From positions 47,511 to 111,510 of the forward strand of contig JAWCLH010000003.1 of assembly GCA_038851035.1 (NCBI GenBank): a DNA stretch of 64,000 nt, read 5' to 3'. Shown here piece by piece: positions 11,539-40,772 of the stretch. The first letter of the stretch is position 1, and every line of letters begins with the position of its first letter. Under the pieces are notes generated by a model, which searched no databases, was not told the DNA's origin, and worked only from the letters and a program-made list of their open reading frames with translations. The DNA comes from Thermoplasmata archaeon (GTDB lineage: Archaea > Thermoplasmatota > DTKX01 > VGTL01). The position numbers and the translations under genes were made by a program.

Positions 11539-11638
11539 GGGCTAGAGGGGTATAGAAGTGACGGAGAAGGAATGGGCGAACCGACCGGATGGCTGGAACG
11601 CAGGCCCAGATGGAATCGATAAAATAGAGGCGTGAGCG

Positions 11639-17443: not shown

Positions 17444-17570
17444 GGATGTGCGCTGAAAGACCGGATGTGGGCGAAGAGGGGGAAGCCGGAGGCCCCCGGG
17501 GAACCGAAGGCTTTAAAGCCCACACAGCGGTAATGGCGAATTCCCCACTAGGAACAATGGGGGAGCGCAG

Positions 17571-21314: not shown

Positions 21315-21371
21315 ACCTATCATCCTTTCCCGTTTTCATAGTGGCGCCTCTTCAGCGCCTCCATAAGTGCC

Positions 21372-21755
21372 TCACGGCGCCATCTGCTCCTCAATCCAGA
21401 CGATAACTTCCTTCGCGTCCTCCATGAGGGCCTCAGCCTTTTCCTTTGTGTAGAGCTCATAGGGCGGCTCGCCGGAGGCGTCGGGGTATCTGGACAGCGT
21501 GTAGTGCGGCGTCAGCTCGCGAAGGCGCGTGTCGTGCTCGGGAGGAACGCTGGCGATGTGGCCGAGCCTTATCAGCGAGTGCTTCTCCTCCGGGGGCTCG
21601 AGGTTCTTGTGCATCAGGAGCGCCCGGAGCATCTTCTCGACCGATTGATGGCAGAGCCACGCCACGAGATAGAAGTCGCCGGCGGCGAGGGCCCTCTCGG
21701 CGCTCTCCATCTCTCGCTTCGCCTGCTTCACCCATATCAGGACGCGATCCTTCAC
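21372..21755 (-). CDS. HEPN-domain protein (orphan; no adjacent minimal nucleotidyltransferase)
   Basis: LVAWLCHQSVEKMLRALL...HSLIRL...LTPHYTLSRYPDA matches the HEPN helix/R-x4-6-H-like pattern ending in RYPD. Confidence 0.65.
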   Translation of the reverse strand: MKDRVLIWVKQAKREMESAERALAAGDFYLVAWLCHQSVEKMLRALLMHKNLEPPEEKHSLIRLGHIASVPPEHDTRLRELTPHYTLSRYPDASGEPPYELYTKEKAEALMEDAKEVIVWIEEQMAP

Positions 21756-21968
21756 CGCCCAGACCCGGACTATCTAGATGCTTAGGGGTAAATGAAGTTA
21801 TCTGGGAACAGCCCGGAGCGTCTGGAGGCAAGTCGCTGGAGTAGGAAGCAAGGAGGCAACGGTCTCTATCCATCCGGAATAATCGAAAAGGGGGATGAGT
21901 TGGGAGAAGTTTCGGAGTTCGCCGGAGGCGGTCGATGGAGCCTCCGGCAGCGGTGGCAAAATGGAAAA

Positions 21969-24900
21969 ATGAACGATAATAATATATATAATAAATCGAA
22001 TGGTTATACCGAAGGGAGCCTTGTGACGAATACGCGAGCGGTGGTGTGTGCTGTCCTCCTCGCCCTTGTCCTGCCCTGCGCCCTGCCAATCGCGCCTGAG
22101 GCCTCCGGATACGAGATAACCCGCTTCATGGACGGGGCGCTGGAGAGGGAGCTGGTTTTCACAGCGGAATCGCTATTCGCAACGGTCCAGCTGTCCATTC
22201 CGCGCGCTACAAATCTGTCCAGAGCCGAGCTTAGCATCTCCTCATCAGCCTCATCGGTCTCTGCGTTGCTGATGGAAAACACCTTCGCCTCCGGGTCTAT
22301 CCAGAACCTGACCCGCGCCAGTGAACTGCGGCTGGTCGAGAAGGACCGGTGGTGGAATACTTCATGGTCTTACAGAGCTCCCATATCGGTCAACTCCGGT
22401 TCCAAACCAAGGCGCAACATCACCGTTGTCGCCGACATCAATATTTCTCTTCTATTCACGAACCTCGGTATTCTGGGAAGGTCCCTGGATGCGAAATCAT
22501 TGAGAATCATTGAGGTAGATGCAAACGGCGACCCTGTGATCTTCAATGCCTCGATTGCCGGACCCGAAAAGTACGAGGTCCCGATGAGGTGGTCGAGGGC
22601 ACCGGGCTACAGCGCGCCCGGCAATGAAATAATAAGGCTCGAGTGGCTCCTCGCTGGCGATACCCCGCAGAATAGGGAGCGCAGGTTCCATCTATACTTC
22701 GACGACACCACCGCAACCCCTAAGCCCGAAAGCGACGCGAGGCTGGCGTTCTGGGACGATGTTCTTTTCTCCAACTGGGCCCCCTACACCAACTTCGGTC
22801 TGCTCTACAGAAACTCCAACGGGAATTTCTCCAATGTGCCGTCAGGTAGCTTCCCCACTAACGCCTCCGCGGCTGTGATTACCGGGGACTTCAACGGGGA
22901 TGGCTACCCCGACGCCGTCTTCGCCAACTGGTACAATGGCTCGTCCTACGAAATCACGAGCGACATCTTCGCCGGAGGCCCCGGGGGGCCAGACAATGTT
23001 CCCGAATGGTCCCTCCTGACCTGTGGGACTTTCGGCTGCGCCGTCGGAGACCTGAACGGCGATGGCATCGACGACATCGCCTTCCCCGGCCTCAGAGTCG
23101 GCTCTAACTATAGCATCGGGAGCAGGGTTTATCTGGGGAACGTGGCGGGCCCGTCGAATGACTCTGCGATTCTTTTCTATACAGAAGGCGCCACGGACGC
23201 GGCGATTGCCGATTTCAACCGCGATGGGCTTAACGACATCGTTTTCTCCAACGCCTACAACGGAAGCTCCGGAAACATTTATAGCTTCATATACTACAAT
23301 AGCGCGGGCGGAATCAACCCTGTGCCGGATGTCCGACTCCCGAGCCAGAATGCCTATGCAGTTGAGGCCGCGGACCTGAACAGGGACGGCTGGGTGGACA
23401 TCGTCATCGCCAACCGCAAGAACACGAGCCTCTCGGGCTCCGCGCAGTACAACATCAACAGCTTTGTATACTACGGGGGGCCGGGGGGATTCAACTCCAC
23501 CCCCGACGTCCTCCTTCCTACATACGGCGCCCTCGACGCCAAAATCGCGGACCTGAACATGGACGGTTGGCTTGACATAATTTTTGCGAACTACAACGAC
23601 GGCGCAACCTATAACACGATGAGCCATGCCTACTTCGGCGGCCCCTCGGGCTTCTCGACCACGCCCGGCGCCTACTTCCAGACATCGTGGGCCTACGGCG
23701 TCTCCGTGGGCGATGTGAACAATGATGGAATTCCGGATGTGGCCTTCGCGAACTACTACAATGGCGTTTCGACCGACATCAACAGCACGATATTCCTGGG
23801 GCCATGTATCGGGCTCCAGCAGCCTGACATATTCCTCCCGACGCACGGTGCGAATGACGTCCACATCGTGGACGTGGACAGGTACGACATGTCCAGGGAC
23901 CTGAGCCCTCCCATCGTCCACCCTGGCGTCCCCGAGGGGCGCTACGTTCCCTCCGGGAGCTACGTATCTGCAGAGCTCGTCGAGGACGAGCGAATTCTCT
24001 CCGCCTCCGCGACCTGGAACGCCACCGTCCCCGCCCAGCCCTCCGGCTGCTACGTGACCGTTGCGCTCTCCGGCGACGGCGGCGCGAGCTGGATCGAGGT
24101 CTCAAAGGGCGAGAGGCTCGATTTCACAACCCCGACGAAATCGCTGAGGTACCGCGTTGCCCTCCACTCAGACCCAAGGGCAGTCGAGACGCCTGTCTTC
24201 AAAGACATCACGATATTTTATGAAAAGGAGAGCTACCCCCACAACGTGACGCTGGACGTCGGGGAAGACGGCACGGTTGACTGGCGCTGGCCCGGCAAAT
24301 TCCCAGAGAGCGTCACGGTCAATGAGAGCACCCCGGGCGTCGCTGGGAAGGGCTTTGTGACGCTCCTCATGGAGCTCGTGCCTCGCGTCGGCATAGGGAA
24401 CCAGACCGTGCCCCTTAGGCTCGCGTCGGAGAGGCCCGGCGTCCTGAGGCTGCGCGGCCTTAGCATCGCCGGCAACTACGCCCCCGAGGCCTTCCTCCCG
24501 ATTCCGGACTTCCTGATGCTCGAGGACACCACAATAGAGAATGTGCTCAACTTCAACAACTTCTTCAGGGACCTCGACGGCGACCCCCTGCAGTTCACGC
24601 TTACGGGCGGACGGAACGTGAACGTCATTATCGCGACCAACGGCAGCGCGAGCTTCTCGCCCGCGCGCAACTGGTTCGGCACCGAGCGCCTTACGGTCAG
24701 GGCCGCGGACCCTTCGGGCGAGAAGGCCGAGCTCTCCTTCGCTGTCGAGGTCAGGTCGGTCGAGGACCCGCCCTTCTTCACCGCCCCCCTGCCAGACGTG
24801 AGTGTTCCGGAGGGAGAGAGCGCGCCCCAGCTCTTCAACCTGCTGGACTATATTGAAGACGAGGATACGGTGAAGACCGCGCTAATATTCTCGGTCGTCG

Positions 24901-26348
24901 AGGTCTCGAACAGAAACGTCTCCGTTCTCATCGATTCGAGCCGCAATGTGGAGGTATCATCGAGACTCGGCTGGAACGGCACCGCTGTGGCGAGAATCAA
25001 GGTCTTCGACGGCGAGCTCAGCGCCTTCGCCCAGCTCAACATCACGGTAGAGAGGGCGAACAGGCCCCCGGTTGTTTCGGCCCTGCCAAGCATCAGCCTC
25101 CAGCAGGGCAGTGTGATGGAGAGAGCATTCAACCTGCGCAACTACACCTCCGACCCCGACACACCCATCGAGAATCTTGTCTTCGCTATAGAAAGCAACA
25201 ACGAGCCCTCCTCGGGCGTCTCCATCGACACAGAAGGCTGGGTCCATGTACGGCCAGCATCTGAGTGGAAGGGGACGGCGCTCGTCGTCGTCAACGTAAC
25301 AGACGGCCAGTGGACCGTCAGGGCATCTTTCACCGTCACCGTTCTGGAGAAGCCCGCGACCCCCCCTCCGACGCCAGCCCCAGTCGAGGACAGGACCCTC
25401 GACTACATCCTGATCGCCCTCCTCATCGTCCTCGTGGTCGCTGTGATTGTCGATGTGGGCCTCAGGGTGAGAAAGCCGCCCCCGACTCCCCCCCAAGCAG
25501 GAGCGGTCGAAAGGAAGGAGGAGGTAGGGGCTCCGCCGGAGGCACCGGAGTCGAGGGTGGAGCCGAGGCCACCGGGTGAAGGCGCGGTAACCCCCGCTCC
25601 TGAGGAAGGCGGTGTGCTGCCGCCCGTGCCGCCGACCGGCGAGGGCGCGCCGGAGAGTGTCCCTGGAGGCGGTGAGGTCCCGGCTCCCGGCGAGACCGCC
25701 GGGCCGCGCGCGCCAGAGGCACTGATTGAAGAGCGCGAGGTGCCGCCGGAGGGCCCCGCGCCACCCACCCCCAAGGAGGAAACGGGCTTCGAGGTCGTTT
25801 CGGTCGAGGAGATGCCGGGGGCCGGGGTTGCGGCTCTGCCAGAGGGGGGAGCCGAGGTACCTCAGGTCCCCGAGAGCGTTCCTGACGTGACGCCGCCGGA
25901 GGCCGGAGCAGAGCCGACACAGGAAGCCCCCCACACGGAGGGAGAGGCCGGGGCCGCGGCCGGAGCCGGTTTCGAGGAGCTCCCGGCGCCGGCCGCTCCA
26001 GGAGTTGAGGAGCGGCCCGCCGGCGGCGTGCCGGAAGAGAGGCCCGCCGCGCCCATGGGCACTAAGAGCGCCGCAGAGCTGCTTGCAGCACTGGAGGGAA
26101 GAGCCCCAGCGGAGGCAGCTCCTCAACCCTCCCCTCCACTGCCTCAGGAGCCCCCGGCCCCCGGCCCAGCACCCGCGCCGGGCCCGATAGGCGAGGAAGG
26201 CCCACCCGGAGAGGTCGAACAGCAACCGCCCAAACCCGTCACGAAGGTCAGGTGCGCGGGCTGCAGGGCTGCCATCCCCGTTTTCAGCACCCAGAGGCCG
26301 CTCGTCGTCACCTGCCCCCACTGCGGGAGAATGGGTATGCTGAAGTAG
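21969..26348 (+). CDS. Very large surface protein with FG-GAP/VCBS-type beta-propeller repeats, cadherin-like/He_PIG Ig-like domains, C-terminal TM, Pro/Glu/Ala-rich cytoplasmic tail and a terminal CxxC...CxxC zinc ribbon
   Basis: Signal/TM AVVCAVLLALVLPCALPIAP; repeated DxNxDGxxD calcium-binding-like FG-GAP motifs (DFNGDGYPDAVFAN, DLNGDGIDDIAF, DFNRDGLNDIVFSN, DLNRDGWVDIVIAN, DLNMDGWLDIIFAN, DVNNDGIPDVAFAN); TM LIALLIVLVVAVIV; C-terminal VRCAGCRA...CPHCGRMGMLK. The start was trimmed from the 21792 ORF to the AT-rich MNDNNIYNK. Confidence 0.8.
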   Translation: MNDNNIYNKSNGYTEGSLVTNTRAVVCAVLLALVLPCALPIAPEASGYEITRFMDGALERELVFTAESLFATVQLSIPRATNLSRAELSISSSASSVSALLMENTFASGSIQNLTRASELRLVEKDRWWNTSWSYRAPISVNSGSKPRRNITVVADINISLLFTNLGILGRSLDAKSLRIIEVDANGDPVIFNASIAGPEKYEVPMRWSRAPGYSAPGNEIIRLEWLLAGDTPQNRERRFHLYFDDTTATPKPESDARLAFWDDVLFSNWAPYTNFGLLYRNSNGNFSNVPSGSFPTNASAAVITGDFNGDGYPDAVFANWYNGSSYEITSDIFAGGPGGPDNVPEWSLLTCGTFGCAVGDLNGDGIDDIAFPGLRVGSNYSIGSRVYLGNVAGPSNDSAILFYTEGATDAAIADFNRDGLNDIVFSNAYNGSSGNIYSFIYYNSAGGINPVPDVRLPSQNAYAVEAADLNRDGWVDIVIANRKNTSLSGSAQYNINSFVYYGGPGGFNSTPDVLLPTYGALDAKIADLNMDGWLDIIFANYNDGATYNTMSHAYFGGPSGFSTTPGAYFQTSWAYGVSVGDVNNDGIPDVAFANYYNGVSTDINSTIFLGPCIGLQQPDIFLPTHGANDVHIVDVDRYDMSRDLSPPIVHPGVPEGRYVPSGSYVSAELVEDERILSASATWNATVPAQPSGCYVTVALSGDGGASWIEVSKGERLDFTTPTKSLRYRVALHSDPRAVETPVFKDITIFYEKESYPHNVTLDVGEDGTVDWRWPGKFPESVTVNESTPGVAGKGFVTLLMELVPRVGIGNQTVPLRLASERPGVLRLRGLSIAGNYAPEAFLPIPDFLMLEDTTIENVLNFNNFFRDLDGDPLQFTLTGGRNVNVIIATNGSASFSPARNWFGTERLTVRAADPSGEKAELSFAVEVRSVEDPPFFTAPLPDVSVPEGESAPQLFNLLDYIEDEDTVKTALIFSVVEVSNRNVSVLIDSSRNVEVSSRLGWNGTAVARIKVFDGELSAFAQLNITVERANRPPVVSALPSISLQQGSVMERAFNLRNYTSDPDTPIENLVFAIESNNEPSSGVSIDTEGWVHVRPASEWKGTALVVVNVTDGQWTVRASFTVTVLEKPATPPPTPAPVEDRTLDYILIALLIVLVVAVIVDVGLRVRKPPPTPPQAGAVERKEEVGAPPEAPESRVEPRPPGEGAVTPAPEEGGVLPPVPPTGEGAPESVPGGGEVPAPGETAGPRAPEALIEEREVPPEGPAPPTPKEETGFEVVSVEEMPGAGVAALPEGGAEVPQVPESVPDVTPPEAGAEPTQEAPHTEGEAGAAAGAGFEELPAPAAPGVEERPAGGVPEERPAAPMGTKSAAELLAALEGRAPAEAAPQPSPPLPQEPPAPGPAPAPGPIGEEGPPGEVEQQPPKPVTKVRCAGCRAAIPVFSTQRPLVVTCPHCGRMGMLK

Positions 26349-26420: not shown

Positions 26421-27824
26421 TCAGGCGATATCCTGTCCCGACAGACTCGGGGTCTTCCGCTTTCCGGACGCAGATGGCGGTCTGGAGGCGCCGGGGTCCG
26501 GGCCCGGCAGACCGTGGTCATCTACGTTTACTCCCCGAAACCCTTCCCCACCTCTGCTGAGGGGCTGCCCAACCGGCTGGAGTTCGAGCGGAATCGCCAC
26601 CATTTGAACGAAGGAGAGACCCTTCCAGCGGAGCCGCGAGAGTAAGAGTTCTGCGATGCGGTACTGTCCGCCGGAGGTCATCAGCCGGCACCGGAGACGA
26701 CGCCTCTCGCCCTTCATCACACCTCCGATACAGGCGAGGAGGCTCTTCAGGTCCTCGGGATGGGCCTCGAGAACCACTCTCCCTCTGGCCACATCCTCCC
26801 TCCTGAAGCCTGTCATCTCTTCGAATCGATTGTTGATGAATATGCAGCGGAGCCTCCGGTCCACAATGCACACCCCCGCTGGCATGCTCCAGAGCATCTC
26901 GTCGCAGAACTCGCTCTCGGACCTTCTCGCCTCCTCCACGGCCTTCAGATCAGTTATGTCGACGCGAACGCCGGCTATCCCCGCTCGCTCACCTGTCGAG
27001 TCGGGGACTGGAGAAGCGCAGTCGAGCACCCAGCGGTAGACGCCGTCGGCGCGGAGCCACCGATAAACCAACCGGGCGGCGTCCCCTGAAGCCAGCTCCC
27101 GGAGAGCGCGCAGCACTCTCCTCTGGTCCTCGGGGTGGATGCGTGTCTTCCACAGGGCGGGGCGCTCGATGAACTCCGAGGGGCTGAAGCCCGTGAGCTC
27201 CTTCACCTTCCCTCCGACCCAGCTCGACGCAGCCGAGCCGCTGGTCGAAAGAAAATAGACGAAAACGGGAAGAGCTTCAGGAGATGGAATGACTGGGAGT
27301 GTGCCGCAGGCCTTTCTCTTTTCCTTCTCATCCCCTCCCTCGCCCGCCGCCGGTGGCATGGGGAGCACTGTGAGCTGGATGGACCCGTCCGGACCGCTTA
27401 GCTCCACAATCTGCCCGGAGCCCGTCTGGCCCACTGTTTTCAGAATTCTACGCAACTTCTGCCTTTCCTCTTCTCCGCAGAGCGATTTGAGGCTTTCGAA
27501 GAGACTCATAGCCTCATCATTGAGTCTGAGAATCTCGCCATCCGAGCTCGCCAGAAAAAGAGGTAGCGGGGTTCCTCCAGGGTCCTCGAGCAGCCCAGCT
27601 ATATCCTCCTGTCCAGTAACTGGCCTGGTTCTGAGCAGTCGGGGGTGAGGGGCACCACCAGTCACCCGGCCGCCCGCTGTTCCACCATCTACAAGGGCTG
27701 GACGGGGCGGCGATGGCCGAGGGATGGTGCGTACTCCCAGAGGAATCAGGGGAAGATCCCCGCCGGCCTTAAGGTGGGGGCATGCGGCTACCTCTTTCAG
27801 GAGACCTCCCATCCCGGTCCTCAA
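26421..27824 (-). CDS. Multi-PAS-domain sensor protein without a recognisable catalytic output domain
   Basis: Three PAS-like blocks (e.g. ILRLNDEAMSLFES, YRWLRADGVYRWVLDCASPVPD, MLWSMPAGVCIVDRRLRCIFINNRFEEMTGF...RLRCRLMTSGGQYRIAELLLSRL); the start is probably downstream of the called M. Confidence 0.65.
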   Translation of the reverse strand: MRTGMGGLLKEVAACPHLKAGGDLPLIPLGVRTIPRPSPPRPALVDGGTAGGRVTGGAPHPRLLRTRPVTGQEDIAGLLEDPGGTPLPLFLASSDGEILRLNDEAMSLFESLKSLCGEEERQKLRRILKTVGQTGSGQIVELSGPDGSIQLTVLPMPPAAGEGGDEKEKRKACGTLPVIPSPEALPVFVYFLSTSGSAASSWVGGKVKELTGFSPSEFIERPALWKTRIHPEDQRRVLRALRELASGDAARLVYRWLRADGVYRWVLDCASPVPDSTGERAGIAGVRVDITDLKAVEEARRSESEFCDEMLWSMPAGVCIVDRRLRCIFINNRFEEMTGFRREDVARGRVVLEAHPEDLKSLLACIGGVMKGERRRLRCRLMTSGGQYRIAELLLSRLRWKGLSFVQMVAIPLELQPVGQPLSRGGEGFRGVNVDDHGLPGPDPGASRPPSASGKRKTPSLSGQDIA

Positions 27825-27919
27825 CCGCTCATATCTATTACAACTCGTGATATAAATACCTTGCTGGAAAAATTAACAGCAAAGCCTAAATACTTAAAAC
27901 TCCGCCACCGACGGTAGAA

Positions 27920-29023
27920 TCAACACAGGGGCAGCACGCCGAACTGAAGGATTTCCATCCTCTCCTCGGGGGTCAGGAGGCTCGAGCTCAGGAGAATCGT
28001 GGCCCCGGTGTTTCTGGCGACCCGGACGAGGTCCCTGACGAGGTCGAGGGCGGCGAAGTATCCCGCGTTCGTGACGATGTAGTCCAGATTCTCGATGAGG
28101 ACCACAGACCTCTCCGACTGCTCGATGTAGTCCCGCACGGTGTGGAGGAGAACATCGCACTCCGAGGGAGGCAGCGCCCTCTCGTAGACCGATTGGGCCA
28201 TCCATATCACGGGCACCCTCCTGAGGCCCGTCGCCGCCCTCAGCGAGACGGGGTGGGTGCGCGTGACGACGAGGCCGGGTATCCCGGCGCGCGCCGCGGC
28301 CAAGAGCGCCTCCCTTGCCCCGGCGACCCCGCCCTCTCCGGCCAGGTATACCCCGGGCCCGGGTCCCGTCCAGCCCTCACCGCTGCCGGGTCCCTCGGCT
28401 GCGGGGGCCGGGCTGAATGCCTTGTACCTGAGGACGAGGAGGGTAAGAATCGCCGAGGCCCCCGCGGACGCGTAGGGAAAAATCGCAATGGAGACGCCGA
28501 GGAAAGGCAACAGGGCGTCGCAGACGGGGCCAGCGACGAAGAGCACGGTCAGGGCCGAGGCAATCATCTCTGGCTCCCTCTCGGATAGAACGGCCTCCGA
28601 GCGGCCGGCGTATAAAAAGAACGAGGCGAGGAGATAGAAGAACGCGCCGTGTAGCAGGTAGGCTGGATGGGGTGGGCTCCAGCCGTAACTCACGCCAGCC
28701 GCGAGTAAGAGTAGAGCGGGAATGAATAAGAGCGGCCCCCGAATGATTCCCCGCCCCGAGAGGTGCTTTCCTGATGTGTAGCCGAGGGTGAATAGGGCGA
28801 CGAGAGGGGCCTCCGCAATGGAGAGAGCGAGGGACGCTGTCGGATCGCTCGGCCAGAGATAGGTCAGGTCGTGGATTGAGAATGTGCCGATGAGGACCGC
28901 AAGAAGTGTGGCGACGCGGCCGCGGGCAGACCGAACGAGCAGTAGAAGAAGGCCGACGTGGAGGAATAGGGGAAGGAGGAGCCACTGGTCCAGGAGCCGA
29001 GTGAGCGGGGAGACCTCCCTCAT
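27920..29023 (-). CDS. 7-TM membrane protein with a C-terminal degenerate (P-loop-less) KaiC/RecA-like domain (DUF835-like architecture). Start trimmed to MREVSPLTRLL; the upstream 185 codons of the track ORF overlap the real ASCH gene in another frame
   Basis: About 7 hydrophobic helices, then GIPGLVVTRTHPVSLRAATG...SVVLIENLDYIVTNAGYFAALDLVRDLVRVARNTGATILLSS. This aligns block by block with the soluble DRPH paralogs at 29.9-34.4 kb and with the intact KaiC-like gene at 31931. Confidence 0.65.
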   Translation of the reverse strand: MREVSPLTRLLDQWLLLPLFLHVGLLLLLVRSARGRVATLLAVLIGTFSIHDLTYLWPSDPTASLALSIAEAPLVALFTLGYTSGKHLSGRGIIRGPLLFIPALLLLAAGVSYGWSPPHPAYLLHGAFFYLLASFFLYAGRSEAVLSEREPEMIASALTVLFVAGPVCDALLPFLGVSIAIFPYASAGASAILTLLVLRYKAFSPAPAAEGPGSGEGWTGPGPGVYLAGEGGVAGAREALLAAARAGIPGLVVTRTHPVSLRAATGLRRVPVIWMAQSVYERALPPSECDVLLHTVRDYIEQSERSVVLIENLDYIVTNAGYFAALDLVRDLVRVARNTGATILLSSSLLTPEERMEILQFGVLPLC

Positions 29024-29025
29024 CT

Positions 29026-29571
29026 TCAGCCCCCTCTCAGGGTCCTCAGGGGCCTGAACTCGATCACCCTGACGATCTCGAATGGGTTCCAGCGGTGGTA
29101 GGCCGCCTCCCACTTGCGCCTGAACTCCTCGAGCGAGCCGGACCCATCGGCTATTGCGTCCTCCTCGGTCAGGTCCGCGAGCCTTTTCCGGTAGACATCG
29201 GTGATTAGGAGCTGGGCAAAGGAGCTCCCGGATGCAACCCTGAGCTTTGCGTCGTAGACGCTCCCCGCCCTCATCCTCGTCCTCCTCAGCGGGCGAATTG
29301 TGAGAGTCTTGGAGCCGTATTGGATAAGCCTCACCTCTTCCGGCCGGAAAACGAGGGCGCCCGCGGAGCGCCTCCCGATAGAGGTGTTCCCCCCGGCCCA
29401 GAAGATAACCTTCAGGAAGGCGAAGGTGACGAGGCCGCCGATGAGGACGAGGGGGAGCTGGCCAAGCTTGTAGAACTCCGCGTGACCCCAGAAACCTATG
29501 ACGAGCAGCATCGAGACCAGGAGAAGCACCGCGTTCCGGACAGCGGAGGATTGCAGGCGTTTCTCGGTCAC
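29026..29571 (-). CDS. Membrane-anchored ASCH-domain protein (2 N-terminal TM helices + ASCH)
   Basis: VLLLVSMLLVIGFW and LVLIGGLVTFAFLKVIFWA, then FRPEEVRLIQYGSKTLTIRP...LLITDVYRKRLADLTEEDAIADGSGSLEEFRRKWEAAYHRW...IVRVIEF (ASCH beta-barrel signature). Its stop abuts the start of the 27920-29023 gene. Confidence 0.6.
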   Translation of the reverse strand: MTEKRLQSSAVRNAVLLLVSMLLVIGFWGHAEFYKLGQLPLVLIGGLVTFAFLKVIFWAGGNTSIGRRSAGALVFRPEEVRLIQYGSKTLTIRPLRRTRMRAGSVYDAKLRVASGSSFAQLLITDVYRKRLADLTEEDAIADGSGSLEEFRRKWEAAYHRWNPFEIVRVIEFRPLRTLRGG

Positions 29572-29915
29572 GAGACATTATTGAGCTGAGGGGAGATATC
29601 CGTTTCGGAGTGGGGCGGCACCGGGGAGCTGCGCGGCCGGCCTATGGGCTGAACGAACGGGCGGGGCCGTTGGCCCGAGGGGCGCCGGCCCCTTTCAGAA
29701 ATCGCGCGCCCGCGTTCAAGAAAAGGACAGCCGGAGGGGCCGCTGCGGGAAATTGCGGGTCACTTGAAAAATAAGGCTCGGGTCACCTGTATTTCCGTCG
29801 GAGCACCGAGAGCGGGCAGGGATGCCAGCGAGGGAAATTGGCTGCACGGGGGGGCTGGGGGGCGCGATTTCCTGCCCGACCCGGAGAGAATTTCAAACGA
29901 TTCGAAACCACACCG

Positions 29916-29931
29916 GAATTTTTAAATAACA
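29916..29931 (+). promoter_or_regulatory. Candidate TATA/BRE box (ggaatttttaaataac) for the pseudo-KaiC operon
   Basis: The only AT-rich hexamer in a 420-nt GC-rich divergent spacer; 60-75 nt upstream of candidate starts 29994/30003. Confidence 0.3.
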
Positions 29932-29993
29932 CACCACTGCAATTATCTCACAACGCCTCAGGAGGGCGGCGGAACCAAGGTCGGAAACAAAGG

Positions 29994-30725
29994 ATGCGGT
30001 GCATGGGTCGCGGCGGAGGTGCGGGTTGTATGGACGGCGGCGGTCTGAAAGAGCCAGAACCGGCATCATCCGTTGCCCCGGCCATCCCGGGGCTCGTGAG
30101 GCCCAACGGGGGACAGCCGGCCTATCTCTCCCCCCTGGAAGAAATTCTTGCGGGCCACCTCTCCCACTCACGGCCGGGTAGCAGGCTCCTCCTGACCTGT
30201 CCTTACACAAGAATTCTTAAAGTGGATATGGCCGTGCTCCGCGTTCTCCTCGGCCGGAGGAGGGAGAGAGGCATATACGTCTCCATAGACAGGCCCCACA
30301 GCTTCGTCCAGACCGCACTGAGAAAGATGGGTGTTCCTCTCGATGGCCTGATATTTATTGACGCCGTTTCAAAGCTGACGGGCATGAGGGCTGAGGGCTC
30401 CATGGTCAGGTTCCTGTCCAGCGGCTACTCCCTCCCCCTCCTCGACGACCTCTTCAGCAGGGCCTACCTGCCGGAGGGCATCCAGATGCACTTCGTCAGG
30501 CTGGAGGACCTGAGTTTCGTCCTTCTGGATAATATCGTGGTCATGCTGCAGTACACCACGCTCGAGAAGGTCAGGAGGACGGTCACCCTGCTGGGGGAGG
30601 CGGTTAAAAAGTTCACGGACATGAGAGCGCTCATCACACTCGACCCATCCGTCAGTCCGGAGCTCTACTCGATTGTGAAAGGCACCTGCGACCGAGAGAT
30701 TTCCCTGCTGGAGGCCGGGCTTTGA
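29994..30725 (+). CDS. Degenerate KaiC/RecA-like paralog 1 (no Walker A; SIDRPH motif); start uncertain (29994, 30003 or 30033)
   Basis: RVLLGRRRERGIYVSIDRPHSFVQTALRKMGVPLDGLIFIDAVS ... FVLLDNIVVMLQYTTLEKVRRTVTLLGEAVKK...ALITLD. These are the same blocks as the KaiC gene at 31931 (GEQGIFFTTLSEP / RIVIDPVSVI) but with the P-loop replaced. Confidence 0.6.
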   Translation: MRCMGRGGGAGCMDGGGLKEPEPASSVAPAIPGLVRPNGGQPAYLSPLEEILAGHLSHSRPGSRLLLTCPYTRILKVDMAVLRVLLGRRRERGIYVSIDRPHSFVQTALRKMGVPLDGLIFIDAVSKLTGMRAEGSMVRFLSSGYSLPLLDDLFSRAYLPEGIQMHFVRLEDLSFVLLDNIVVMLQYTTLEKVRRTVTLLGEAVKKFTDMRALITLDPSVSPELYSIVKGTCDREISLLEAGL

Positions 30726-31285
30726 GTGAGACTCCTGCCTCAGCCGAACACGGGGCTCTTCTTGAAGGTGAGGGCTTCGTTGTCTGCCCTGTCAGGTTCC
30801 CGATGATATCAAAAGTCATGATTGGAATTCTGGACAAGCTCCTGAGACGGACGCAAGGCATAGGGGCGGTACTCTCCCTCGACAGGCCGCACAGCTACAT
30901 CAGCCGTCTTGTGGAGAAGAACGGAATTCCCCAGGACAGAATTCTCTATATAGACGCAGTGATGGGGATCTCGGGAGAGAGCCCAGAGCCGGACGGGGGA
31001 GCGGAGATGCTGCCCGCGCCCTTCTGCATCAACATTCTATCGGACTTCATCAACGTCTGTGGGCCTAGGTTCAGCGAGAAGAGACCGGGCTTCCTGCTGA
31101 TTGACAACCTCAGCGCTCTCACGTCGTACGTTTCCGAGGAGTGCCTCAAGAGATTCCTGGAAAGCCTCCTCGTCCTGAGTAGGCAGACGCCCGGGCTGAG
31201 GTGCGTTTTTGTTCTGGACAAAGACGCTCATCCAAGAATTTACGAAATGGTTAGGGCGATGGGTGCGAGGGAGGTGAGCCCTTGA
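30722..31285 (+). CDS. Degenerate KaiC/RecA-like paralog 2 (SLDRPH motif)
   Basis: LRRTQGIGAVLSLDRPHSYISRLVEKNGIPQDRILYIDAV...FLLIDNLSALTSYVSEECLKRFLESLLVLSRQTPGLRCVFVLD; overlaps the upstream stop by 4 nt. Confidence 0.6.
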   Translation: MSETPASAEHGALLEGEGFVVCPVRFPMISKVMIGILDKLLRRTQGIGAVLSLDRPHSYISRLVEKNGIPQDRILYIDAVMGISGESPEPDGGAEMLPAPFCINILSDFINVCGPRFSEKRPGFLLIDNLSALTSYVSEECLKRFLESLLVLSRQTPGLRCVFVLDKDAHPRIYEMVRAMGAREVSP

Positions 31286-31926
31286 ATGCTGGCCCCAGGC
31301 CTGCCGCCCCATGGGAAAGCGCCCGAACGGACCAGGCAGTGGCGAGCGGGGAGCGCCCCAGGCCCCGTCTCCCCACGTCGGGCTCAAGCCTTCTCCCGGC
31401 GGACAGGTGGGCCTGCCTTGTCAGAGAACTAAGCACCGGGAGGAAACTGCTCGTAACCACCTCCCCACGCCTTCTGAATCTAGTGAGCCTGTACGTGGTC
31501 TGTTATCTCCAGAAGCATCCCGGAAGCGTTCTGTTCATCTCCGTGGACCGACCCAAAGGATACATGTCAAAAATGGTAGAGAGGTACTGCCCTGCAAGCG
31601 GGAAAGTGGTCTGGAGGGACTATACGATGATAAATCAAGCGAGGGTTTCCCATGTTGCCGGTCTCTTCGCCCCCAAGCTACTTCTAGATGCCCTCGACCA
31701 CCTTTCCCGAGTAGAAGGCGGAGAGACCTCGGTCGTGGTTTCGAACGTCTCCGCGCTGAGCTACTACAACAGCAATGACCGCGTCCGAGAATTTCTTGCA
31801 GCCCTAAGCAGAGAAGTCGACGAGGGACGAATAAAGAAGATTGCGATAATAATGGACGGTCAGGGGCAATATATATATAACGAAGCAAAAATATTTACTG
31901 AAAAATCGGTCGACATCGGGTGGTGA
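31282..31926 (+). CDS. Degenerate KaiC/RecA-like paralog 3 (SVDRPKGYM motif)
   Basis: VVCYLQKHPGSVLFISVDRPKGYMSKMVERY...SVVVSNVSALSYYNSNDRVREFLAALSREVDEGRIKKIAIIMD; 4-nt overlap with the upstream gene. Confidence 0.6.
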   Translation: MNAGPRPAAPWESARTDQAVASGERPRPRLPTSGSSLLPADRWACLVRELSTGRKLLVTTSPRLLNLVSLYVVCYLQKHPGSVLFISVDRPKGYMSKMVERYCPASGKVVWRDYTMINQARVSHVAGLFAPKLLLDALDHLSRVEGGETSVVVSNVSALSYYNSNDRVREFLAALSREVDEGRIKKIAIIMDGQGQYIYNEAKIFTEKSVDIGW

Positions 31927-31930
31927 GGGA

Positions 31931-32620
31931 ATGGGCGAGATCGGTCTGATAAGAATCAAGTCTGGGATCCACGGGCTCGATGAGATGATGGAGGGCGGGT
32001 TCGCCTTCCCTTCTACAGTGCTCGTTGCCGGAAGCGCTGGAACGGGGAAGACTACGTTCGCCCTCCAGTTCCTAAGCCAGGGCGCGAGGGAGGGAGAGCA
32101 GGGAATCTTTTTCACCACTTTGAGCGAGCCCACGCAATGGATGCTGAGGTTCGTCTCTCGATTCAGCTTTTTGGACAAAGACACCTTCGGCAAGCAGATA
32201 AAGTACGTCGACCTCGGACCGTTCCTCAGGGAGCAGAGGGACCCCGCGGCTATGCTCAAGTTCATAGACGACCAGATCGCCGAGCACATGCCCCAGAGAA
32301 TCGTTATCGACCCCGTCTCAGTCATAGGAGGAATGATCAAGGGGGACTACAGGATGTTCCTATACGACCTGACCACCCACCTGAAGAACTGGCAGGCCGT
32401 GTCCATACTGACGGGTGAGGTCCTGCCCAACGAGCCCTACCCGGTCGAGATATCGTACATCGTGGACACGGTCATCATCCTGAGTCTCGGCCTCACCCCC
32501 GAGGGTGCGCGCAGGAAGTACTGCGAGATTCTCAAGATGCGCGGCACCACTCACGCGACGGGCCAGCACCTGATGGACATATCGAGAGACGGAATAACGG
32601 TCACGATGGGGCTGAAGTAG
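31931..32620 (+). CDS. Single-domain KaiC/RecA-like ATPase with intact Walker A and B
   Basis: GIHGLDEMMEGGFAFPSTVLVAGSAGTGKTTFALQFL (Walker A at ~32030-32053), RIVIDPVSVI (Walker B), ILKMRGTTH; 229 aa. Confidence 0.8.
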   Translation: MGEIGLIRIKSGIHGLDEMMEGGFAFPSTVLVAGSAGTGKTTFALQFLSQGAREGEQGIFFTTLSEPTQWMLRFVSRFSFLDKDTFGKQIKYVDLGPFLREQRDPAAMLKFIDDQIAEHMPQRIVIDPVSVIGGMIKGDYRMFLYDLTTHLKNWQAVSILTGEVLPNEPYPVEISYIVDTVIILSLGLTPEGARRKYCEILKMRGTTHATGQHLMDISRDGITVTMGLK

Positions 32621-32643
32621 GGCTCATTCGAGACGGAGCCGCC

Positions 32644-33237
32644 ATGTCCTACAGGTCTGAGCTGATTTTTCAGGAGCTGCGGAGGGCTCTGGAGCGGCCG
32701 GGGGCGGGCGGTGTTCTTGTCACGGTAAGGGCCACGTCGGTCACAAGAATCAATCTGTCGGTCCTCAGGGTTCTTCTTACAGAGAGGGGGGAGCGAGGAA
32801 TATTTCTCTCCCTCGACAGGCCGGACAGGCACATGCTGGAGCTTCTGGAGAGGCACAACCTCGCCGCCCCTGGCGAGGCATCTTCCTCGCAGGAGACGAG
32901 GCCAAAGAAAATAGTCGTGGCCGCGGGCGTCATCAGCCCCGTGGAGTTCTTAGACGAGGTCCTCGCCCGCCTCTCGGACAGGGAGAGGGCCCCTGCGCTC
33001 GAGGAGGACCTGAGGTCCTTCCAATTCATAATGGTTGACAACCTCTCATCTATGGCTCTTTATAGCGGCCCTCGCAATCTAGAGCGATTCTTTAGGGGCA
33101 TGGAGGAGCTCCTCCTGCGCTTCCCAAACCTAAGATGCGTCTTCGTCACGGCAAGAGGGGCGCCTCCGGAGGTCATGGCACTTGCCAGGAGAGTATGTCC
33201 CGTCGAGGTGGACATAAAGGACGAGTGGCTGATTTGA
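32644..33237 (+). CDS. Degenerate KaiC/RecA-like paralog 4 (SLDRPDRHM motif)
   Basis: RVLLTERGERGIFLSLDRPDRHMLELLERHNL...FIMVDNLSSMALYSGPRNLERFFRGMEELLLRFPNLRCVFVTA. Confidence 0.6.
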   Translation: MSYRSELIFQELRRALERPGAGGVLVTVRATSVTRINLSVLRVLLTERGERGIFLSLDRPDRHMLELLERHNLAAPGEASSSQETRPKKIVVAAGVISPVEFLDEVLARLSDRERAPALEEDLRSFQFIMVDNLSSMALYSGPRNLERFFRGMEELLLRFPNLRCVFVTARGAPPEVMALARRVCPVEVDIKDEWLI

Positions 33238-33306
33238 GCGCTGAGGGGAGCACTAAGTGGGAAGCACCCCGGAGCTTCAAGAGCCAGTGGAAGGGGGGAA
33301 ACCCTT

Positions 33307-34362
33307 TTGCAGCCCGCGCTACATCCTGACGAATCACTCCTGGAGGTCGCGGAGCTCGCGGCCCGGGGCAGGAGGTGGGAGGAGGCTCTCTCGCTCCTCG
33401 ACAGGGTTCTTGAGGCTGCACCTGCGCTGGAGCGCGCCCACATCCTTCGATGCGGAATTCTAAGGGCCCTCGACCGCCGGAGCGAGGCCGTCGCCTCGGC
33501 CGAGGCCTTCGCTTCCGCGCTCCCCGGCTCGGCGAGAGCCCACCACGAGCTGGGGGTGTGCCTGAGCGCCGCGGGCAGGTATGAGGAGAGCGTGGAAGCC
33601 TTCAGGAGGGCACTGGAGCTTGACCCGAAACTGCTCGAGGCCTGGAAATGGATGGGAATCGCTCTGGGTAGGATGGGAAGGCTCGAGGAGGCCTTCCGGT
33701 GCTACGAGCGGGCCAGTGGCAGGGCGCCGGAGCTGAGCGTTCCCGTGCCGTCCGGGCCCGCGCCATCCGGGCTCGAGACAAGAATTCACGAGCTGATGAC
33801 CGGAATGATGGAAAAGGGCGGCGGTTGCGTGCGGGTCGAGACAGACCCCGCACTCACCTTTAGGACTAGCGTCCTTCTTCTCTCGATTCTTCTCAGGGAC
33901 TGGGACATGGACGGCGTCCTGGTTTCGCTTGGCAGGCCCGCGGACGTCTACCGGAGAGCGCTTGCCGCTAGGGTTCACACCCGCCACCCCCCACACTTCG
34001 TCGAGGTGGTGGCGGGCGGACCCTCGCCCGAGGCCGAGGGGGCACGGGAGTGGGTCACAAGCCTCTCCGCCTTCGAGCCCGATAGGATAGACGCCGCAGT
34101 CAGGGCGGGGCTCCAGAAGGTCGCGGAGATGTACGGCGGGGAGGAGCACTTCGTCATCATAGACGATATAACAGCGATGGAATTCTACAACGGGCGCGAG
34201 GTCGTGAGGAGGTTCGTCGCGGGCTTCTTGGGGGAGCTGTCGTTGCTCAACATCTTCTGCTTCGTAGTTGTTCCCACGAGAAGAGCGCTGGAGCTGCTTG
34301 GGCTCCTTCCCTTTTTCTGTCGAGAGAGAATTTGCGTGAGGGCGGAGTGGCTTCGCGAGTGA
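33307..34362 (+). CDS. TPR-repeat N-domain fused to degenerate KaiC/RecA-like paralog 5
   Basis: N-terminal TPR units (ALSLLDRVLEAAPALERAHILRCGIL..., AHHELGVCLSAAGRYEESVEAFRRALELDPKLLEAWKWMGIALGRMGRLEEAFRCYERA), then LLLSILLRDWDMDGVLVSLGRPADVYRRAL...FVIIDDITAMEFYNGREVVRRFVAGFLGELSLLNIFCFVVVPT. Confidence 0.6.
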   Translation: MQPALHPDESLLEVAELAARGRRWEEALSLLDRVLEAAPALERAHILRCGILRALDRRSEAVASAEAFASALPGSARAHHELGVCLSAAGRYEESVEAFRRALELDPKLLEAWKWMGIALGRMGRLEEAFRCYERASGRAPELSVPVPSGPAPSGLETRIHELMTGMMEKGGGCVRVETDPALTFRTSVLLLSILLRDWDMDGVLVSLGRPADVYRRALAARVHTRHPPHFVEVVAGGPSPEAEGAREWVTSLSAFEPDRIDAAVRAGLQKVAEMYGGEEHFVIIDDITAMEFYNGREVVRRFVAGFLGELSLLNIFCFVVVPTRRALELLGLLPFFCRERICVRAEWLRE

Positions 34363-40637: not shown

Positions 40638-40772
40638 GTCAGGGACAAACCGAAACGTATTAAAATATAAACCCCGTTAGGACCCAGCGAGCCCGCCGGC
40701 AGGGCGCGCCTCAGAGATAGATTAGTCCGGTCTATCCCAGCGCGGCTGGCCCGCGGGAGGGAAGGGACCGAA

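Follow-up and report, generated by a model that had tools for sequence, protein, structure and literature searches.

The window analysed here (64,000 nucleotides of a contig from a Thermoplasmata archaeon) carries on its minus strand two tightly coupled genes, one for a membrane protein with an ASCH domain (TM-ASCH) and one for a seven-helix protein with a DUF835 domain (7TM-DUF835). They are divergent from a plus-strand operon of KaiC-like genes:

29026-29571, minus strand: TM-ASCH gene (181 aa; GTG start, TGA stop at 29026-29028; ORF list)
27920-29023, minus strand: 7TM-DUF835 gene (367 aa; ATG at 29021-29023; ORF list and sequence)
27902-27914, minus strand: stem-loop followed by T-rich tracts, immediately after the DUF835 gene stop
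29572-29837, no strand: intergenic region from which the ASCH gene and the KaiC-like operon diverge, reaching approximately 29993-30029 if an internal ATG is used
29838-34362, plus strand: partner operon, six KaiC-like genes including one intact KaiC
29838-30725, 30722-31285 and 31282-31926, plus strand: three degenerate KaiC-like proteins
31931-32620, plus strand: intact KaiC ATPase (Pfam KaiC PF06745, E 3e-39)
32644-33237, plus strand: degenerate KaiC-like protein
33307-34362, plus strand: TPR plus degenerate KaiC-like protein (TPR matches in Pfam)

As described in the first-pass annotation, two minus-strand genes are tightly adjacent, and 2 nt separate the TGA of the TM-ASCH gene from the ATG of the DUF835 gene. 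The GTG assigned to the TM-ASCH gene is the earliest start available downstream of an in-frame stop (ORF list and sequence). We rejected a 552-aa ORF (27920-29578) as a merging artefact in which the DUF835 frame is prolonged upstream through the ASCH gene. Because the orthologues of the downstream protein begin MREVSP or MRTVSP, the true start is the ATG at 29023, and the 185 codons ahead of it are an out-of-frame artefact, in agreement with the earlier reading of the ORF track. The possibility, raised at the same time, that the ASCH ORF is itself an artefact lacking homologues is answered by 31 full-length homologue clusters in one search; full-length homologues were found for both genes, and neither is a chance ORF. 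Identical proteins are present at NCBI as 'MAG: ASCH domain-containing protein [Thermoplasmata archaeon]' (P0001) and 'DUF835 domain-containing protein' (P0032).

The stem-loop at 27902-27914, found in the terminator-like scan and in the sequence as no more than a consensus match, is likely the 3' end of the two-gene transcription unit. The spacer towards the KaiC-like operon depends on the start chosen for the first plus-strand protein: 266 nt with the TTG at 29838, and approximately 420-460 nt with the ATG at 29994 or 30030. This protein has 295 aa counted from the TTG vs 204-221 aa in its orthologues, and the 420-nt spacer given previously is plausible if an ATG start is used. A sigma-70 promoter scan returned 0 sites, the consensus being bacterial and irrelevant to an archaeal host.

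The TM-ASCH protein and its family

The following features were assigned to the TM-ASCH protein:

29395-29535, minus strand: two-helix membrane hairpin (residues ~13-59; hydropathy, AF2 helices at residues 5-28 and 39-61)
29461-29496, minus strand: hairpin-turn signature GFWGHAEFYKLG (residues 26-37; alignment A6)
29047-29349, minus strand: ASCH (PUA-like beta-barrel) domain (residues 75-175; Pfam, PDB profile, Foldseek)
29293-29316, minus strand: ASCH octapeptide GSKTLTIR (residues 86-93), with G86, K88, T91 and R93 in the YqfB-type GK[T/S]R form

Pfam ASCH (PF04266) matches residues 75-175 over profile positions 3-102 of 103 (E 2.5e-9; 38.2 bits vs a cut-off of 21.2). Together with two hydrophobic segments in the hydropathy profile and the hairpin in the AF2 model, this bears out the initial description of a 2-TM protein with an ASCH domain. 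In a profile search against the PDB, YqfB (1te7) was matched over its full length (E 0.034), and in Foldseek searches of the PDB the best matches of the ASCH model were all ASCH structures, with YqfB (9kyf) at E 3e-4 and a target TM-score of 0.60-0.67 and further matches to 3s9x, 1t62 and ZmASCH (5guq). The AF2 model of this domain is of low confidence (pLDDT 66, and <50 for residues 80-98, which include the octapeptide region).

Averaged across 33 family members, the N flank of the hairpin has a net charge of +2.9, the turn one of -0.3 and the C flank one of +1.5. Because of this charge bias across the family both hairpin termini are predicted to lie inside the cell (N-in/C-in), an arrangement that would make the ASCH domain cytoplasmic and would place the turn at the outer membrane face.

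An exhaustive search returned approximately 55-60 full-length TM-ASCH clusters at 50% identity. All sequences derive from metagenome-assembled genomes (MAGs), and every family member with a named organism comes from a Thermoplasmata MAG. The alignment A6 of 33 members (26-77% identity) has F27, H30 and Y34 as the sole invariant residues of the family (33/33), and G45 (32/33) and G37 (30/33) are near-invariant. Pfam ASCH passes E <= 0.01 in only 13 of the 33 diverse members, so most of the family is annotated just as 'hypothetical protein'. Five matches to the hairpin only (P0089, P0100, P0107, P0140 and P0152) were rejected as new architectures; they have Arg/Pro/Gly-rich tails, come from high-GC contigs and look frame-shifted or out-of-frame.

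The window copy has the octapeptide form G-x-K-x-x-[E/T/S]-x-R (motif classes from bioRxiv 10.64898/2026.02.27.708502). Family-wide the octapeptide is eroded, with Lys in 18/33, Thr/Ser/Glu in 13/33 and Arg in 21/33 members, and an acidic residue at the equivalent of YqfB E74 (D142 in the window copy) is present in 13/33. Judged from the alignment, selection has kept the hairpin turn and the family-specific D125 and R128 rather than the catalytic site. Thus, of the original suggestion of an RNA-binding ASCH protein the domain identity stands; most members, however, have an eroded catalytic and binding octapeptide, and what the family conserves as its signature is in the hairpin.

The E. coli N4-acetylcytidine amidohydrolase YqfB (1te7/9kyf) resembles the window protein in the short ASCH form of ~100 residues and, for this copy, in the GK[T/S]R octapeptide and the acidic residue at the E74 position. 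In the alignment to 1te7 the YqfB catalytic residues Lys21, Thr24, Arg26 and Glu74 correspond to K88, T91, R93 and D142 (Asp for Glu). A Glu-to-Asp change is tolerated in EOLA1 at the octapeptide glutamate, a site that differs from YqfB E74 (bioRxiv 10.64898/2026.02.27.708502). However, YqfB is a soluble monomer of 103 aa whereas the window protein has an N-terminal membrane hairpin, which is the most conserved part of its family, and within the TM-ASCH family conservation of the catalytic positions is lacking. Against the NCBIfam model for ac4C amidohydrolases, NF003443, the window protein scores 11.8 bits vs a cut-off of 93 (E 0.22).

The 7TM-DUF835 protein and the KaiC-like paralogs

In the 367-aa protein we distinguish a membrane domain and a C-terminal domain, the latter with two motifs:

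28421-28984, minus strand: seven-helix membrane domain (residues ~14-201), predicted N-out/C-in with very short outer loops
27944-28360, minus strand: DUF835, an inactivated KaiC-like (RecA-fold) domain (residues ~222-360)
28313-28339, minus strand: degenerate P-loop GEGGVAGAR (residues 229-237; alignments A2/A3, hhalign register against KaiC alignment A7)
28082-28105, minus strand: Walker-B-like strand VVLIENLD (residues 307-314; alignments A2/A5)

Hydropathy gives approximately seven hydrophobic segments and AF2 seven helices (residues 16-201) followed by an alpha/beta domain, consistent with the ~7-TM protein proposed at the outset. According to both, the outer loops comprise just ~5-9 residues and there is no extracellular domain. 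The orthologues are 40-87% identical across the full length. An N-terminal motif of the 7TM protein, LLDQWLLLPLF, was weighed as a general docking point for the hairpin and rejected, being restricted to the closer clade and absent from L005, L012 and L015. Among bacterial and archaeal 7TM receptors, HisKA_7TM (PF16927), the N-terminal 7TM region of histidine kinases, has no match in the window protein at E <= 1; the L001-L003 orthologues carry a weak precomputed match, and a paralog (L004:11814-13088) scores E 6.7e-4 and 20 bits vs a cut-off of 28.6. Unlike in those kinases, the output domain in the window protein is a pseudo-ATPase KaiC-like domain. The likeness to GPCR 7TM bundles is at the fold level of the predicted model only and is no sign of homology.

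Pfam DUF835 (PF05763) matches residues 242-346 over profile positions 14-118 of 136 (E 1.5e-15; 57.6 bits vs a cut-off of 33.1), which confirms the DUF835-type architecture to which the protein had been likened. The fold predicted for this domain, from a shallow alignment of 11 sequences, is RecA/KaiC-like alpha/beta and matches PH0284, ArlH/FlaH and KaiC. A homologue search with the DUF835-domain alignment, restricted by a word pre-filter, gave just 4 matches and left that alignment shallow. The Walker A motif GxxGxGK[T/S] is absent; its Lys-Thr is swapped for Ala-Arg, and the swap is conserved in the orthologues. E311 in the Walker-B-like strand is invariant among the orthologues (A2) and near-invariant in a wider set (A5), and hhalign pairs VVLIENLD with the KaiC strand 'liVIDsl'.

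By sequence the connection to KaiC is weak. Pfam KaiC (PF06745) has no match to the 367-aa protein at E <= 1, and hhalign of DUF835 against the local KaiC alignment gives E 0.048 and a probability of 1.1%, in the correct register. PDB searches with single window proteins returned no significant match, and neither did PDB searches with the DUF835 and soluble-paralog profiles, FlaH appearing in both lists at E 0.17-0.25. The assignment of DUF835 as KaiC-like rests on the predicted fold and the literature. Of the DUF835/KaiC relationship suggested in the first-pass annotation, the DUF835 part is clear from the profile, and the KaiC part is supported by the predicted fold.

The soluble degenerate paralogs of the operon form a family of their own, with mutual BLASTP E-values of 1e-17 to 1e-4 and faint KaiC/DUF7504 matches, and as a family they align to KaiC in hhalign with E 7.5e-4 over 137 columns. 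The membrane protein had been said to carry the same degenerate KaiC-like blocks as these paralogs. This is not borne out: BLASTP of the DUF835 domain against the soluble paralogs returned no match, and hhalign (A3 vs A4) gave a probability of 0.6% (E 0.09; 29 columns). As far as the alignments go, the two appear to share only a superfamily-level layout, that is, a strand followed by a conserved Pro at the site of the KaiC catalytic Glu pair, and an hhhhD/E-N-L Walker-B-like strand.

Galperin et al. 2018 (PMC5847659) tabulate DUF835 as an inactivated KaiC, citing the KaiC-hub proposal of Makarova, Galperin & Koonin 2017. The window protein resembles this 'iKaiC' in its DUF835 score above the Pfam threshold, its KaiC/RecA-like predicted fold and its dead P-loop. 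Its neighbours, KaiC ATPases and PAS, REC and TPR proteins, are those expected from the hub model, and REC-DUF835 fusions like the ones listed in PMC5847659 are present in the related loci L004, L007 and L018. It differs in that the domain is fused to a seven-helix bundle and paired with a membrane ASCH protein. ArlH/FlaH is a single-domain KaiC-like protein and docks on the membrane-associated archaellum motor ArlI/ArlJ; in contrast to the DUF835 protein it binds ATP, has an intact Walker A, is soluble and lacks a fused membrane domain, and its motility machine is absent from the window locus. In the searchable literature, the scope of which did not extend to Makarova et al. 2017 (mBio 8:e01959-17), no paper names a TM-ASCH partner with DUF835 or KaiC.

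Gene neighbourhoods and proposed function

Gene order was compared in 13 independent contexts in which the ASCH protein is 27-78% identical to that of the window. A genome scan with a very narrow peptide pattern, taken from the closer alignment A1, yielded one locus. The recurrence that the first-pass annotation had proposed to check was found: a gene for a multi-TM DUF835 or DUF835-like protein lies immediately downstream of ASCH in 10 of the 11 contexts with a readable downstream gene (the one in L005 was identified by hhalign; probability 93.7%, E 1.9e-7, 328 columns), and KaiC-family genes are present within a few genes of ASCH in 12/13. An operon of the window type adjoins the ASCH-DUF835 pair in L001-L004 and L007-L011, and in L005, L015/16, L014, L017 and L018 the ASCH gene is embedded in a co-directional KaiC operon, with an order such as KaiC-KaiC-ASCH-DUF835-KaiC. 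The ASCH and DUF835 genes are 2 nt apart in the window, L001 and L015; they overlap by 4 nt in L002, L004, L007 and L005 and by 1 nt in L012. In L018 the operon encodes two TM-ASCH paralogs but lacks a 7TM gene, and hence a 7TM partner is not strictly required by the ASCH protein. Histidine kinases, REC-PAS-MetOD1 and REC-DUF835 proteins, Ras/Arf GTPases and Roadblock/LC7 proteins are also encoded in the related operons, and PAS proteins are found near the window locus as well (Pfam). The genomic setting is thus that of a KaiC signalling hub, with an intact KaiC and TPR/PAS proteins nearby and similar or fused operons in 12/13 contexts.

Our data suggest, with a probability of roughly 0.6, that the pair is the membrane side of a signalling system that centres on KaiC and is specific to uncultured Thermoplasmata; most likely the locus provides a KaiC-hub system with its membrane input or anchor. 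We infer that the two membrane proteins associate, that they contact KaiC oligomers and that the signal runs inwards, as input and not output. The first-pass annotation, with its membrane receptor feeding into the soluble KaiC-like assembly, presupposes this putative direction. The ASCH and DUF835 genes would form one co-translated operon. The larger protein would be a GPCR-like seven-helix bundle with a cytoplasmic KaiC/RecA-fold C-terminus that, its P-loop being lost, would not bind ATP in the canonical way; this domain would most likely dock onto, or insert into, oligomers of the active KaiC and the degenerate KaiC-like proteins. The smaller protein would be a two-helix hairpin that presents a largely non-catalytic ASCH domain to the cytoplasm, with the conserved F-x-x-H-x-x-x-Y turn at the outer membrane face, and would most likely serve the 7TM protein as co-receptor or adaptor subunit or, where the 7TM gene is missing, act as membrane anchor and sensor on its own.

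KaiC-like ATPases have reportedly been proposed as main archaea-specific signalling hubs. To our knowledge hardly any of the inputs and outputs predicted for these hubs has been defined, and we know of no DUF835 protein that has been studied experimentally. The present locus suggests that the KaiC signalling network has a membrane arm not described before; new here are the TM-ASCH family, the invariants of its hairpin turn and its synteny with DUF835 and KaiC. It offers a compact, testable system of three parts, namely a 7TM-pseudoKaiC, a membrane pseudo-ASCH, and a single active KaiC together with several dead paralogs. The gene order is kept from 78% down to 27% identity, which nominates H30, Y34, the dead P-loop and E311 as candidates in the coupling of a membrane event to a KaiC ring. 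ASCH, recently reported as a universal ac4C eraser, appears from its sequences to have been recruited here as a membrane-anchored and probably non-catalytic module.

With next to no loop mass outside the cell, the 7TM protein offers no evident site for a ligand, and the module could equally serve as an output or membrane anchor. In such an arrangement DUF835 would recruit KaiC/iKaiC to the membrane and thereby steer a transport-like or envelope-related activity of the 7TM and hairpin proteins, with no external signal involved. The very short outer loops would fit, as would the large surface proteins that flank the locus (an FG-GAP/cadherin-like protein of 1518 aa at 21792-26348, found in L001 too) and the cytoplasmic sensors (PAS, histidine kinase, REC) already in the neighbourhoods; we nevertheless regard this version as rather unlikely. 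Since the YqfB-type octapeptide GSKTLTIR and D142 are intact, the window copy may, to go by these residues, be catalytic, and TM-ASCH might then be an active membrane-tethered YqfB-type N4-acetylcytidine (N4-acyl-cytosine) amidohydrolase, an RNA or nucleoside eraser that KaiC merely co-regulates in expression or localisation. By structure as well as by profile YqfB matches best, all 19 ASCH proteins assayed in bioRxiv 10.64898/2026.02.27.708502 stripped ac4C from tRNA, and in L008/L009 TGT and queuosine-synthesis genes adjoin the pair. However, the same study found Lys and Glu/Thr crucial for tRNA deacetylation, and it is these positions, along with the acidic residue, that are eroded across the family while the hairpin turn, D125 and R128 are preserved; with the low NF003443 score this makes an active eraser improbable in our view. 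Somewhat more doubtful still is that the hairpin, and not the ASCH barrel, is the working part, as a cofactor-binding membrane redox or energy sensor relaying through the 7TM-pseudoKaiC to the KaiC ring. Each hairpin would then partner either another hairpin (L018 has two coexisting paralogs) or the 7TM bundle, the invariant His30 and Tyr34 together with Phe27 would bind, at the outer membrane face, a cofactor or ion such as haem, a metal or a quinone, and the GPCR-like 7TM-pseudoKaiC would pass the state to the KaiC ATPase ring and, in some lineages, also to Ras/Arf-type GTPases with Roadblock proteins. If true, this would be an archaeal receptor-to-NTPase route with KaiC in the place that G proteins or histidine kinases otherwise take.

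A short N-terminal TM effector joined to a sensor domain is a common architecture in defence systems, and the pair could be read as an anti-virus or abortive-infection module in which a PUA-like modified-nucleotide sensor and a two-helix membrane-disrupting effector act with KaiC-like NTPase partners. PUA-like modified-nucleotide sensors do occur in defence systems (for example bioRxiv 10.64898/2026.01.15.699771), and the window KaiC gives one faint PADLOC match (mad8, E 2.4e-4). PADLOC has, however, no match for the ASCH, DUF835, iKaiC, TPR or 823-aa proteins; the locus is no variable island and is syntenic across lineages beside housekeeping FtsZ, NusG/Spt5, L1 and L10 (in L005 the neighbours are a tRNA synthetase and ribosomal proteins), and the partner genes are classical signalling parts (histidine kinase, REC, PAS, GTPase, Roadblock). 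We therefore rejected the defence reading, which has no PADLOC support, as very improbable. Finally, the window pair runs divergent from the KaiC-like operon and not with it, as unrelated neighbours might if the adjacency were functionally meaningless here. This we consider scarcely credible, given the recurrence of the pair in 10/11 readable contexts, the KaiC linkage in 12/13, and the fusion with the operon at only 27-38% identity.

The TM-ASCH and DUF835 gene pair

The pair is encoded on the minus strand, opposite the divergent KaiC-like operon, and is followed by a terminator-like element:

29026..29571, minus strand: TM-ASCH gene, 181 aa; GTG start, the first possible after an in-frame stop; TGA at 29026-29028
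27920..29023, minus strand: 7TM-DUF835 gene, 367 aa; ATG at 29021-29023, two nt past the TM-ASCH TGA
27902-27914: stem-loop with T tracts, after the second stop codon

The position of the stem-loop fits a two-gene unit. The 552-aa ORF in the ORF list (27920..29578) is the frame of the second gene, open upstream across the TM-ASCH gene; the first-pass annotation had considered this merged ORF spurious and moved the start to the ATG at 29021-29023, which is borne out since all 7TM-DUF835 orthologues begin with MREVSP or MRTVSP. At every locus with coordinates read, the ASCH and DUF835 genes either overlap by 1-4 nt or stand 2 nt apart, which suggests that they are co-translated. Both exact proteins are present in NCBI (Thermoplasmata archaeon MAG), named "ASCH domain-containing protein" and "DUF835 domain-containing protein", respectively.

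Pfam ASCH matches residues 75-175 of the TM-ASCH protein (E 2.5e-9, exceeding the curated cut-off), and a profile of 24 homologues matches the Escherichia coli ac4C amidohydrolase YqfB (1te7) across its full length (E 0.034). The AF2 model is mediocre (pLDDT 66; shallow input alignment), and the best Foldseek PDB matches of this low-confidence model are all ASCH structures, with YqfB first (E 3e-4). Hydropathy and the AF2 model place two hydrophobic helices at residues ~13-59, in agreement with the earlier description of an ASCH domain on a membrane-anchored protein. A word-indexed search returned 31 full-length TM-ASCH clusters, and these argue against an out-of-frame artefact.

The AF2 model of the 7TM-DUF835 protein is good (pLDDT 80.9, pTM 0.71; shallow input alignment) and has seven helices within residues 16-201, as expected for the annotated ~7-TM protein, and a five-stranded alpha/beta domain at 224-359. 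Because K/R-rich loops (RSARGR, KHLSGRGIIRG, RYK) alternate with short neutral loops, the protein is predicted to be N-out/C-in with outer loops of just 5-9 residues. Weak matches to HisKA_7TM (histidine-kinase 7TM sensor region) were detected by Pfam in some orthologues and paralogs, and none in the window protein itself. Pfam DUF835 covers residues 242-346 (E 1.5e-15), and the best Foldseek match of the C-terminal domain model is the KaiC-like ATPase PH0284, then FlaH/ArlH, KaiC, Rad51 and DnaB, in support of the proposed DUF835/KaiC-like nature of this domain. GEGGVAGAR occupies the position of GxxGxGK[T/S] in KaiC, with Ala-Arg conserved among orthologues, and a Walker-B-like strand, VVLIENLD, is kept. 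The fold match and the lost P-loop agree with the published label of DUF835 as "iKaiC", an inactivated KaiC-like ATPase domain (Galperin et al. 2018, PMC5847659). To that extent the gene belongs to a kind that is already known but not yet characterised.

The first-pass annotation had also read into this domain the degenerate blocks of the soluble KaiC-like paralogs of the operon, and this part did not hold. The paralogs are:

29838-30725, plus strand: degenerate KaiC-like gene
30722-31285, plus strand: degenerate KaiC-like gene
31282-31926, plus strand: degenerate KaiC-like gene
32644-33237, plus strand: degenerate KaiC-like gene
33307-34362, plus strand: degenerate KaiC-like domain in the C-terminal half

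BLASTP clearly links these genes with one another (E 1e-17 to 1e-4), and hhalign aligns the family with KaiC (E 7.5e-4, 137 columns, correct register). BLASTP of the DUF835 domain against them gave no similarity, and profile-profile comparison gave a probability of 0.6% (E 0.09, 29 columns only). Both are dead KaiC-like domains that share gross layout and belong to separate families.

Conservation and genomic contexts of the TM-ASCH family

An exhaustive profile search gave 861 matches, including ~55-60 clusters at 50% identity that span hairpin and ASCH domain (150-195 aa); the rest are ordinary soluble ASCH proteins of ~105-130 aa. All organism-named TM-ASCH members are "Thermoplasmata archaeon" MAG proteins annotated as hypothetical. 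In an alignment of 33 diverse members (26-77% identity) F27, H30 and Y34 are the sole invariant residues, and G45 (32/33) and G37 (30/33) are near-invariant; all lie within the turn motif GF[WYF]xHxx[FL]YxxG...GG. Averaged over 33 members, the net charge ahead of helix 1 is +2.9, that of the turn -0.3 and that following helix 2 +1.5, and from this bias the hairpin is predicted to be N-in/C-in with a cytoplasmic ASCH domain.

The octapeptide of the window protein, GSKTLTIR, is of the YqfB-type GK[T/S]R class, and tRNA deacetylation is reported to depend crucially on Lys and Glu/Thr (bioRxiv 10.64898/2026.02.27.708502). Across the alignment Lys is retained in 18/33, Thr/Ser/Glu in 13/33 and Arg in 21/33 members, the acidic residue matching YqfB E74 in 13/33, and Pfam ASCH detects just 13 of the 33. 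Family-specific barrel residues are D125 (27/33), R128 (29/33) and G143 (29/33). Given the eroded octapeptide and acidic position and the invariant turn, the family looks like an ASCH domain whose enzyme site is largely lost, in which the membrane-turn motif, along with these barrel residues specific to the family, appears to have been fixed by selection.

Thirteen independent genomic contexts were compared.

Gene order around TM-ASCH genes in the window and related loci (L numbers), with identity to the window ASCH protein
Window, L001-3, L004, L007, L008/9, L011; 60-78%; ASCH, then directly one to three membrane DUF835 genes
L010; 61%; histidine kinase and REC-PAS-MetOD1, co-directional and ahead of ASCH; opposite the same KaiC-like operon
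JGI contig (P0029); 44%; ASCH, DUF835
L005; 38%; KaiC, KaiC-Ras/Arf fusion, two Roadblock/LC7, KaiC, TPR-KaiC, KaiC, ASCH, 584-aa protein, KaiC
L012/13; 36%; ASCH, DUF835, TPR gene
L018 (exception); 31%; REC-DUF835, KaiC, first TM-ASCH, 171-aa gene, second TM-ASCH, TPR + degenerate KaiC-like, KaiC, degenerate KaiC-like, HisKA-HATPase, Ras/Arf GTPase
L014, L017 (short contigs); 27-28%; KaiC immediately upstream of ASCH
L015/16; 27%; KaiC-KaiC-ASCH-DUF835 (606 aa)-KaiC

In the contexts of the first row the operon across from the pair runs divergently and encodes degenerate KaiC-like proteins, a single intact KaiC and a TPR protein. By hhalign, the 584-aa protein of L005 is homologous over its full length to the window 7TM-DUF835 protein (probability 93.7%, E 1.9e-7, 328 columns). 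Overall, a membrane DUF835 gene is directly downstream of ASCH in 10 of 11 readable contexts and KaiC-family genes adjoin the TM-ASCH gene in 12 of 13; in these contexts such pairs do recur beside KaiC genes, as the first-pass annotation had asked to be checked. The L018 operon has no multi-TM gene, and its two TM-ASCH paralogs (1906-2433 and 3065-3607, both with the F-x-x-H-x-x-F-Y turn) hint that hairpins may pair mutually.

KaiC operons as signalling hubs is a published idea. Our literature search, outside the text of the 2017 KaiC-hub paper, found no paper mentioning ASCH together with KaiC or DUF835, the word "transmembrane" is nowhere in the 2026 ASCH survey (bioRxiv 10.64898/2026.02.27.708502), and most family members are annotated hypothetical; hence this family of membrane-anchored ASCH proteins with an eroded catalytic site, and its conserved position within KaiC operons, appear to be undescribed.

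The L005 operon that carries the distant TM-ASCH gene and its 7TM partner also includes a gene for a KaiC-Ras/Arf GTPase fusion and, after it, two Roadblock/LC7 genes (558-2513), placing a small-GTPase module inside a KaiC operon. Where the pair is within the KaiC operon the 7TM-DUF835 protein is ~220-240 residues longer (L005 6716-8470, 584 aa; L015 2691-4511, 606 aa), with a helical-looking C-terminal extension rich in charged residues and without Pfam match. The L018 operon also holds a ferritin/rubrerythrin-like protein. In one lineage only (L008 5134-7409; L009 3055-5330), tRNA-guanine transglycosylase and Queuosine_synth genes directly follow the ASCH-DUF835 pair, between two membrane DUF835 genes, i.e. 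nucleoside-modification genes beside a PUA-like gene.

Possible roles of the pair

The 7TM protein is predicted to expose a dead KaiC domain on the cytoplasmic side. On the same side the probably co-translated TM-ASCH protein would present an ASCH domain that is mostly dead, and its invariant His/Tyr/Phe motif is predicted at the outer membrane face. Both genes are evolutionarily tied to operons whose core is a single live KaiC ATPase with several dead paralogs, operons that also carry PAS, REC, histidine kinase, TPR, GTPase and Roadblock genes. Most likely, the DUF835 domain would touch the KaiC/iKaiC oligomer or become part of it and would modulate how the live KaiC hydrolyses ATP or is phosphorylated; the hairpin protein may act as co-receptor or adaptor, or may itself be the sensor in loci that lack the 7TM gene. 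Information would flow from the membrane inwards, which is the weakest step of the proposal.

It is at this step that an output or anchoring role, somewhat improbable in our judgement, is a serious rival, because the outer loops of the 7TM protein are so short. The window copy, with its intact octapeptide motif, could be an active ac4C amidohydrolase tethered to the membrane, which is unlikely to be the function of the family. A defence role finds no support: PADLOC gave no matches for the ASCH, DUF835, iKaiC and TPR proteins, the KaiC ATPase alone matched a model (mad8, faintly), and the locus is syntenic beside housekeeping genes. Read as a membrane input, the pair offers a clean and testable case of how membrane signals could reach the KaiC hubs of archaea; the case is built entirely on comparative genomics of uncultured organisms.

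Wider neighbourhood

8001-11600: GC of 0.35-0.45 (~0.6 elsewhere in the window)
8237-9517: Orc1/Cdc6 gene (Cdc6_C E 2e-28), within the low-GC stretch
9514-10506: 330-aa ORF, opposite strand to Orc1/Cdc6, no Pfam match
11639-17443: 1934-aa protein, ~30 TPR repeats
17571-21314: 1247-aa protein, faint lamin-tail match only
21792-26348: 1518-aa FG-GAP/Big_9/cadherin-like surface protein
26421-27824: PAS-PAS protein, just downstream of the DUF835 gene
35041-37512: 823-aa ORF without Pfam or PADLOC match, immediately beyond the KaiC-like operon
37816-39423: PAS-PAS-MetOD1 protein, beyond the KaiC-like operon
39528-41900: tandem pair of FtsZ paralogs (369 and 375 aa), then NusG/Spt5 and ribosomal proteins L1 and L10

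The PAS-PAS gene is syntenic in L001/L003, and L004, L007 and L010 again contain REC-PAS-MetOD1 and REC-PAS-DUF835 genes, so that the conserved signalling neighbourhood may be wider. Genes without Pfam match occupy a similar place in L001/L002 (852 aa) and L004 (714 aa); their likeness to the 823-aa ORF is by position only, and if related its product may be a further component of the system. Three giant genes stand in a row (11639-26348), the third of which, the FG-GAP protein, has a Pro/Ala/Glu-rich tail and a C-terminal Cys-pair motif and is syntenic with the ASCH-DUF835 locus in L001. The low-GC stretch may represent either the region of a replication origin or inserted foreign DNA. Finally, the FtsZ, NusG/Spt5, L1 and L10 neighbours show that the signalling locus is within a conserved chromosomal core region.
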